A model generated the notes under the pieces. It was not told the origin of the DNA and searched no databases. It worked only from the letters and a program-made list of their open reading frames with translations. Both the position numbers and the translations under genes were made by a program. 64,000 nucleotides of DNA from a virus. Its lineage: Duplodnaviria; Caudoviricetes. The DNA lies in IMG/VR virus record IMGVR_UViG_3300046804_003398; one strand, given 5' to 3'. Of this stretch, positions 7,560 to 7,852 are shown piece by piece (position 1 is the stretch's first letter; each line of letters starts with the position of its first letter).

Positions 7560-7852
7560 ATAGTGGCGGAACAACAATTAGTTTAGTTGTAACGCACAAT
7601 ATATGGCGTTGAAAAACGTTGTATATTGGTTGGAGTAAGAATCATGGAGGGTAAGTCTATGGAGAATTTGAGGTCGTTCAACCCCAAATTTGAGCGTATC
7701 GGGATCGTAGCTAAAATATATGATAAATCGTAGCCCGTTGTGGGGAAAACAAAATCCCATCAGTCATCAACACAAGGAGTAATTAACCGTGTGGATTGTG
7801 GATGAATAACCAGTCGTGATTCTGAAACTTGGAGGTAATCATTAGTCCTCCC
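7560..7852 (+). ncRNA. ~290-nt multi-hairpin ncRNA with 3' pseudoknot (GOLLD/ROOL-like context)
   Basis: Serial stems ACAAC/GTTGT, CAATATA/TATATTG with GCGTT-GAAA-AACGT, CATGGA/TCTATG, AATTTG/CAAATT, CGGG/CCCG; GGAGG/CCTCC loop AATCAT pairs with GTGATT at 7816; no credible ORF; sits between a promoter and tRNAs. Confidence 0.6.

Follow-up and report, generated by a model that had tools for sequence, protein, structure and literature searches.

The window, a stretch of 64,000 nucleotides taken from a Caudoviricetes record (IMG/VR IMGVR_UViG_3300046804_003398), is AT-rich (36-40% G+C) and includes among its genes those for a lysozyme-domain protein and an SNF2 helicase; the public sequencing runs in which the stretch is found are of freshwater and river origin. 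Eight tRNA genes were placed by ARAGORN on the + strand between positions 4372 and 8100, and the RNA described here sits within this array, between the genes for tRNA-Leu(UAA) (7397-7483) and tRNA-Met (8024-8100). Screening of the region 4100-5600 for further structured RNAs returned tRNAs only, and a blastn search with the RNA and its neighbouring DNA against a phage collection gave no match. One member of the array, a 92-93-nt element at 5037-5128, is called by ARAGORN as a tRNA-Ile(UAU) with a long extra arm and receives no call from the Rfam tRNA model; every related array has a homologue of this element (e.g., L014:1789-1881), and some have one on each side of the RNA.

The RNA itself is a fold of about 305 nt closed by the helix P1 (7558-7857, + strand) and composed of seven hairpins and a long-range helix, the coordinates of which are collected in Table 1 together with those of the adjoining elements. 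The preliminary description of this stretch had counted at least seven hairpins, and these can now be named as P2, P3, P4a-d and P5, to which the helices P1 and P4 are added, with covariation behind them. P3 differs in length among clades, its base being conserved and its shorter versions compensated, while in P4b compensatory changes are found in all four pairs of the outer stem, and the inner hairpin is kept as CAUCUA/UAGAUG in the divergent homologue L017. An ORF of 60 amino acids on the reverse strand, lying over the RNA, is broken by stops and frame shifts in other clades.

Table 1. Features of the RNA gene and its immediate surroundings, in window coordinates.
Feature	Position	Strand	Basis or remark
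Sigma-70-like promoter, TTGACA-16 nt-TATACT	7499..7526	+	11/12; best match within 4000-8400
boxA-like leader element, GTTCTTTGTAA	7540..7550	+	Motif enrichment and conservation; outside the mature RNA
P1, 5' strand AAATAG	7558..7563	+	Pairs with 7852-7857; compensatory changes in L055, L017 and the L067 clade
manA-type core	7564..7595	+	Aligned to Rfam manA model positions 17-60
J1/2 GU, P2a and GAACAA	P2a 7566-7568/7593-7595	+	Parts of the manA-type core
P2b hairpin, then GUAA	7574-7579/7585-7590	+	Covariation in P2b
P3, 14-bp hairpin with GAAA tetraloop (7611-7614)	7597..7628	+	MFE fold
P4 domain, long-range helix around four hairpins	7633..7830	+	Main helix with compensatory changes in 7/13 pairs
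P4 helix strands	7633-7636/7827-7830, 7638-7652/7809-7823, 7656-7657/7804-7805	+	
P4a hairpin, conserved loop GGUCGUNCAACC	7658..7698	+	5 compensatory pairs
P4b, CGGG/CCCG stem, inner hairpin ATCGTA/TATGAT, 9-nt 3' bulge	7700..7737	+	
P4c hairpin, A-rich loop	7740..7760	+	Homologue alignment and covariation
P4d hairpin, 9-nt loop 7778-7786	7761..7798	+	4 compensatory pairs
CUUG junction and P5 hairpin (7831-7835/7847-7851), 11-nt loop UAAUCAUUAGU	7827..7851	+	manA model positions 160-187
P1, 3' strand CTATTT (7852-7857), and short 3' tail to the inferred 3' end	7852..7863	+	Head-to-tail joints
Two aberrant tRNA-like elements	7868-7936, 7945-8016	+	Read directly from the sequence

The promoter that had been assigned to the RNA is present in the window, but it is not a general property of the gene. 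Only certain clades (e.g., L079, L160 and L185) have a similar promoter ahead of the RNA, the TTGACA/TATACT form being found 5' of the leader in the window and in a clade in which the RNA is located after tRNA-Lys. Most homologues lack one: P1 begins there about 27 nt past the CCA end of tRNA-Leu(UAA), and the interval contains no promoter. The boxA-like string reported alongside it was recovered at the expected place as GTTCTTTGTAA and is both enriched and conserved: GTTCTTTRWMA occurs four times in the window where 0.71 occurrences are expected, three of the four lying just 5' of RNA genes of the array, and GTTCTTTAACAA or a close variant stands 5' of P1 in every clade, being conserved about 8 nt upstream of P1 in about 70 homologous DNA contigs. 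The leader between tRNA-Leu(UAA) and P1, which contains GTTCTTTAACAA, is nearly invariant. What precedes this non-coding RNA gene is a conserved GYUCUUUAACAA-like element of the kind that marks a boxA leader, and it resembles the boxA of rRNA operons, where a boxA-like leader likewise stands at the start of the gene. By analogy with those operons, we infer that the leader may bind NusB/NusE and give rise to Nus-dependent antitermination. Elsewhere in the array, GTTCTTT(A/G)(A/T)(A/C)A lies at 4739-4749 and 4925-4935, before two tRNA-Met genes, as it does at 7540-7550 before the RNA, and promoter-like sites precede several RNA genes of the array (4197, 7358 and 7499); because boxA-like motifs and promoter-like sites both stand before its RNA genes, the array gives the impression of successive promoter-boxA-RNA units.

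On the downstream side, where tRNAs had been said to follow directly, a tRNA gene does follow, namely tRNA-Met at 8024, but the two aberrant tRNA-like elements come before it. These share an identical arm, CTCAC-ATTCCA-GTGAG, with a loop of 6 nt (8 nt if the C-G pair opens), have different acceptor stems and atypical T-loops, and both end in TCCA; neither is called by ARAGORN or by the Rfam tRNA model at E<=10. Nearly all relatives have a homologous tRNA-like element within about 13 nt after the RNA, its loop reading, for example, CTACCAG or CTTCCAG, and it is possible that this element provides an RNase P entry site for formation of the 3' end of the RNA.

Homologues of the RNA were sought by scanning viral contigs with a pattern for the 3' hairpin, which yielded more than 120 loci. 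According to the distance at which the 5' motif lies upstream, these loci separate into a short class (about 141 nt), a long class (249-273 nt, the window included) and a few intermediates, and the spacing between the 5' motif and the 3' pattern is fixed throughout the long class. A second scan, performed on metagenome DNA contigs, contributed 47 true long-class copies; the metagenome matches L189 and L193 were discarded as chance 20-mers within coding sequence, and 13 pattern matches in prokaryotic genomes were likewise taken as chance, all of them being without the 5' motif and most without stem complementarity. With the exception of L017, every long-class locus has the RNA within a tRNA array and on the tRNA strand, and the syntenic array around it consists of Lys, Glu, Met, Ile, Leu and Leu. 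The ORFs flanking the RNA in the window were also used as routes to homologues: the 315-aa ORF led to 12 loci, none with the RNA, and the 295-aa ORF to no loci.

Comparison of these copies shows that the flagged stretch is a folded RNA with conserved structure. Taken as a single sequence, it folds modestly better than its shuffles (z = -2.5). For the consensus fold, 40 distinct long-class sequences with 67-97% identity to the window were aligned with MAFFT, and covariation was computed on the alignments in Python; the L067 clade, which could not be fitted to the P4 helix by hand, entered only for P1, P2, P4d and P5. Across these 40 homologues, to whose covariation the preliminary description had looked for a decision, the fold comprises 80 pairs with 99.1% standard pairing and compensatory changes in 33 of them, whereas sliding the 3' partners by 1-3 columns leaves 38-45% pairing and 4-11 compensatory pairs, and in 300 column shuffles the observed values of pairing and covariation were never reached. 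RNAalifold runs agree with the consensus fold. Similarly, the G+C-rich L017, which is 48% identical to the window, gives the same helix set when folded independently.

One element of the fold as initially drawn has to be replaced. GTGATT (7816-7821) had been assigned to a terminal pseudoknot with the P5 loop, but its partner is the AATCAT of 7640-7645, and the two strands belong to the nested P4 helix. All 220 cells keep the P4 pairing, and among them are compensated forms, e.g., GUAGUU/AAUUAU and AG-UUG/CAA-UU. The P5 loop never varies, and its pairing with the GTGATT strand is lost in the clades in which that strand has changed (L101/L182 and L055). In the window's own clade both pairings can be written on paper, and an alternative conformer is possible there. 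Neither the P4d loop nor the AUGAU of P4b showed consistent covariation with the P5 loop.

To place the RNA among known families, all 4,227 Rfam families were scanned against 7500-7880 with permissive filters (E<=10), and a further scan covered 7300-8200. The sole match is to manA (RF01745), aligned over its full length with 19.2 bits (E=0.007 in the 381-nt scan), which is below the family's gathering score of 55.2 bits. Two parts of manA are clearly present. Firstly, the J1/2-P2 core (GUGaCUGAAUAA ... UAAgG) with its P1-closed junction aligns with high posterior probability to model positions 17-60, preserving GUG-C-GAA-AA ... GUAA. Secondly, the 3' CUUG is followed by a 5-bp P5 whose 11-nt loop, UAnnCAnUAnU, lies beside the 3' strand of P1 (7827-7851) and matches the UA..CA.UA.U pattern of manA; the same 3' pattern recovers canonical and long copies alike. 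Between these parts, the P3 and P4 of the manA model are deleted in the alignment and large insertions stand in their place, so that the central three-hairpin domain of the family is not found. Scores against the model range from 170.7 bits for L114 and 88.2 for L126 through 31 (L017), 30.9 (L067), 30.5 (L023), 22 (L079) and 20.9 (L055) down to the 19.2 of the window, the three matches near 31 bits having E about 4e-4 in a 59.5-kb scan. L114, a canonical copy, shows the family consensus of P0, P1, P2, three-hairpin P3 domain, P4 hairpin and P5. Against five related viral records the model gave noise-level matches only, though one of these records (G002) carries the long-class copy L014.

Beyond the shared helices and loops, manA and the RNA are both phage-borne and often adjoin tRNA genes on the same strand; a normal tRNA begins 14-17 nt after P5 in 17 of 83 canonical manA copies. 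The differences are equally plain. Whereas manA is about 190 nt long, the RNA measures about 305 nt and is without the 5' P0 hairpin, and whereas manA has its three-hairpin P3 domain followed by the P4 hairpin, the order is reversed in the RNA, a GAAA-capped hairpin being followed by a four-hairpin branched domain. The hosts of manA are marine T4-like cyanophages and those of the RNA freshwater giant phages, and the RNA has in addition its boxA-like leader and head-to-tail joints in RNA data. Because the core is shared and intermediate size classes exist, we read the RNA as belonging to a wider manA superfamily and call it a long-form manA-like RNA, even though it fails Rfam's own membership threshold. 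A single core is clear in the RNA, but a second UGAAUAA string was seen at 7803-7809, inside GUGGAUGAAUAAC; it is closer to the canonical manA core, GUGaCUGAAUAAaC, than the 5' core is, L017 has GACUGAAU at the matching position, and the string may be a trace of core duplication.

A relationship to GOLLD and ROOL, the affinity first proposed for the RNA, found no support from the covariance models, neither of which matched at E<=10 over 7500-7880, or in the scan of 7300-8200. The RNA is at most half the size of GOLLD (RF01998) and ROOL (RF03087) and differs from them in architecture. It resembles them in being an ornate non-coding RNA within or beside a phage tRNA cluster, and GOLLD and ROOL form RNA-only multimeric cages, as has been reported for manA RNAs. 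Given its location in a tRNA array and the cages of manA, a functional analogy with these two families looks good. With regard to manA, its RNAs were originally placed in 5' UTRs and were classed as riboswitch candidates owing to their complex conserved junction and upstream position (PMC2864571), whereas the recent preprint describes a 60-subunit icosahedral-like RNA-only cage as well as decamers and octamers, oligomers that are built from pentamers via kissing loops and in which cores are conserved and peripheral helices variable (preprint 10.64898/2026.07.01.735769, July 2026).

Transcription of the locus could be followed in public metatranscriptomes, at least 19 runs of which contain half or more of the sampled words of the RNA; most belong to a 2018 river campaign and one comes from a 2025 freshwater study. 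Contigs of four river RNA runs (X15-X18) were mapped to 6400-9100, each contig carrying one depth figure and no strand, and coverage gaps were not counted as absence. On this scale the body of the RNA (7560-7857) reaches a summed contig depth of 3,500-9,300 in X15 and X16 and of 20-265 in the other two runs, while the flanking ORFs have contig depths of 2-8 and a contig across the promoter leader has 8.5, so that the RNA exceeds its flanks about 1000-fold. An estimate that combines depth, run size and the length of the RNA puts it at roughly one percent of the letters in some river metatranscriptomes.

The same contigs contain joints at which the end of the RNA runs head-to-tail into its beginning. 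Two variants were found, 7857->7560 with GAATTAAG in between and 7865->7560 with a G in between, and both are accounted for by flank letters encoded in relatives, with no added bases. Joints are present in X15, X16 and X18, with matching loose ends in X17, and one 336-nt contig equals a 306-nt cycle plus k-1. They define a 5' end 1-3 nt before P1 and a 3' end 3-6 nt after it, such that P1 would be closed by a loop of 6-7 nt. Regardless of how they arose, the joints show that the RNA exists as a discrete species with defined ends and in very high abundance, which answers the concern, raised at the outset, that the region might not be transcribed as such a species.

These data bear on two readings that compete with a stand-alone manA-like RNA. 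A cis-acting, riboswitch-like element, in which a ligand controls read-through into the tRNA-like genes and tRNA-Met and in which P5, the 3' strand of P1 and a U-rich tail form the terminator, could appeal to the first classification of manA as a riboswitch candidate (PMC2864571), to the T-rich run CTATTTTATTTTA after P5 and the 3' strand of P1, and to the RNA genes that lie downstream on the same strand. Such an element is nevertheless very improbable here: the RNA is a discrete species with defined ends and far exceeds its flanks, it is located among RNA genes with no ORF directly after it, the terminator scan made no call at P5 (a 5-bp stem with an 11-nt loop), and in relatives the tail is inconsistently U-rich, reading CCACAC in L055 and CUCACUA in L017. 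The formation of cages by manA in vitro likewise points to another kind of RNA (preprint 10.64898/2026.07.01.735769). Somewhat less remote, though still unlikely, is a new family unrelated to manA, with 5' and 3' motifs shared by convergence or chance. The new family for which the preliminary description allowed has on its side a score under the gathering threshold and central domains that resist alignment; against it stand the full-length manA matches of two independent divergent clades (E=3.5e-4, 59.5-kb scan), the identical order of P1, J1/2, P2, CUUG and P5, the last with an 11-nt loop that follows the manA pattern, the intermediate size classes that connect the two forms, and the phage habitat and tRNA link held in common with manA. 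The locus probably encodes a stand-alone structured RNA of about 305 nt, a long-form relative of manA, in the tRNA array of freshwater giant phages.

A closer contest concerns the state of the RNA in the cell. The joints suggest a covalent circle, and an artefact of reverse transcription may also produce them. Under the latter account the RNA would be linear, end-processed and stable, the joints arising by end-to-end template switching during cDNA synthesis on a very abundant small RNA or from unseen strains with tandem copies, and we give this account a substantial chance, somewhat short of even. It draws on the observation that joint contigs amount to only 4-11% of body depth in X15 and X16, and on the fact that rare joint reads suffice to make contig cycles when flanks are rarer still. 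It has to contend with joints that are precise, contain only genome-encoded letters and were seen across four runs and in two strain variants, as well as with DNA, since no head-to-tail arrangement was found in 26 viral and 47 metagenome DNA contigs (about 74). P1, moreover, holds the two ends in a form that a ligase could join, and genes for RNA ligases are present in relatives, where an Rnl1-type enzyme (57.7 bits) is encoded about 7 kb from the RNA and an Rnl2-type enzyme scores 97.9 bits; no RNA ligase homologue was detected within the 64-kb window, and RtcB was not found in two related phage records. The fuller proposal, a covalent circle of about 306 nt sealed in the P1 loop by a phage Rnl-type or host ligase and assembling at its very high concentration, by way of the self-complementary loop and further contacts, into RNA-only cages in the infected cell, is offered tentatively, as a possibility with less than an even chance. 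It has precedents: in archaeal circular pre-rRNA and in other RNAs circularised after cleavage of a processing stem, the ends are held by a helix and sealed in a small loop, and the repair of broken tRNA anticodon loops by T4 Rnl1 likewise involves sealing within a small loop. In contrast to archaeal circular pre-rRNA, the RNA belongs to a bacterial phage, no bulge-helix-bulge motif was identified in it, and its circle is only putative.

Assembled into a single scheme, the proposal of a stand-alone gene giving rise to a circle would run as follows. Transcription would proceed on the tRNA strand, from the RNA's own promoter in the window and, in most relatives, as one transcript with the tRNA-Leu(UAA) that precedes it, the boxA-like leader emerging first and recruiting host Nus antitermination factors as in rRNA operons. 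Host RNases would then cut in the stretch where P1 continues imperfectly, and RNase P, acting at the tRNA-like element that follows, may help to form the 3' end; the RNA would thereby be excised just outside P1 and build up to very high levels. The ends, held by P1, could be sealed by an RNA ligase into the 6-7-nt loop to yield a circle. In function, the product would be a self-assembling particle, like canonical manA in vitro, rather than a switch for a neighbouring gene.

A candidate contact for such assembly lies in the P4d loop, where loop positions 3-8 form the self-complementary hexamer TAATTA (7780-7785). In three clades this hexamer reads UAAUUA/UAAUUG, UGAUCA and UCAUGG, self-complementary and in the same register in every case, and its middle pair changes from A-U to G-C to C-G. 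Such a covarying hexamer, which was picked post hoc and is a lead, hints at a two-fold loop-loop contact, through which the P4d loop might join copies of the RNA. The long form as a whole, with its conserved core and different periphery, also fits the picture that has emerged for manA cages.

The manA RNAs have been riboswitch candidates since 2010, and the capsid-like RNA cages reported for them in 2026 were formed in vitro (preprint 10.64898/2026.07.01.735769). To this the present locus adds evidence from nature: a long-form manA relative that is probably its own gene in phage tRNA arrays and has defined ends, and whose abundance in rivers matches the need of concentration-dependent assembly. 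The link of canonical manA copies to tRNAs argues for re-reading the family as trans-acting RNAs co-processed with tRNAs. Possible circularisation, for which candidate phage ligases can be named, and the covarying self-complementary loop are leads for further investigation; should both the circle and the cages prove true, the RNA would become the first natural example of a DNA-encoded circular RNA that forms cages.

Several further observations were made in related arrays. In some relatives (L036:518-710 and L167), the anticodon loop of the tRNA-Leu(UAA) upstream of the RNA is split by a group I intron, identified as a match to Rfam Intron_gpI with 74.8 bits; this anticodon loop is the classic insertion site of group I introns in cyanobacteria and plastids. 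In L062 (- strand), the anticodon region of tRNA-Leu(UAA) is fused to the P4 region at about reverse-strand position 12130, P1-P3 being absent, which reflects either a natural deletion or an assembly error. Between tRNAs of another related array, L163:198-302 gives a weak wcaG-like match of 27.5 bits (cut-off 42); wcaG is the other orphan RNA of cyanophages that was described alongside manA. Lastly, X15 contains an RNA joint, 8100->7396, which places tRNA-Met directly before tRNA-Leu(UAA) in a river strain, and because of this joint the gene order of the array is seen to vary among close relatives.
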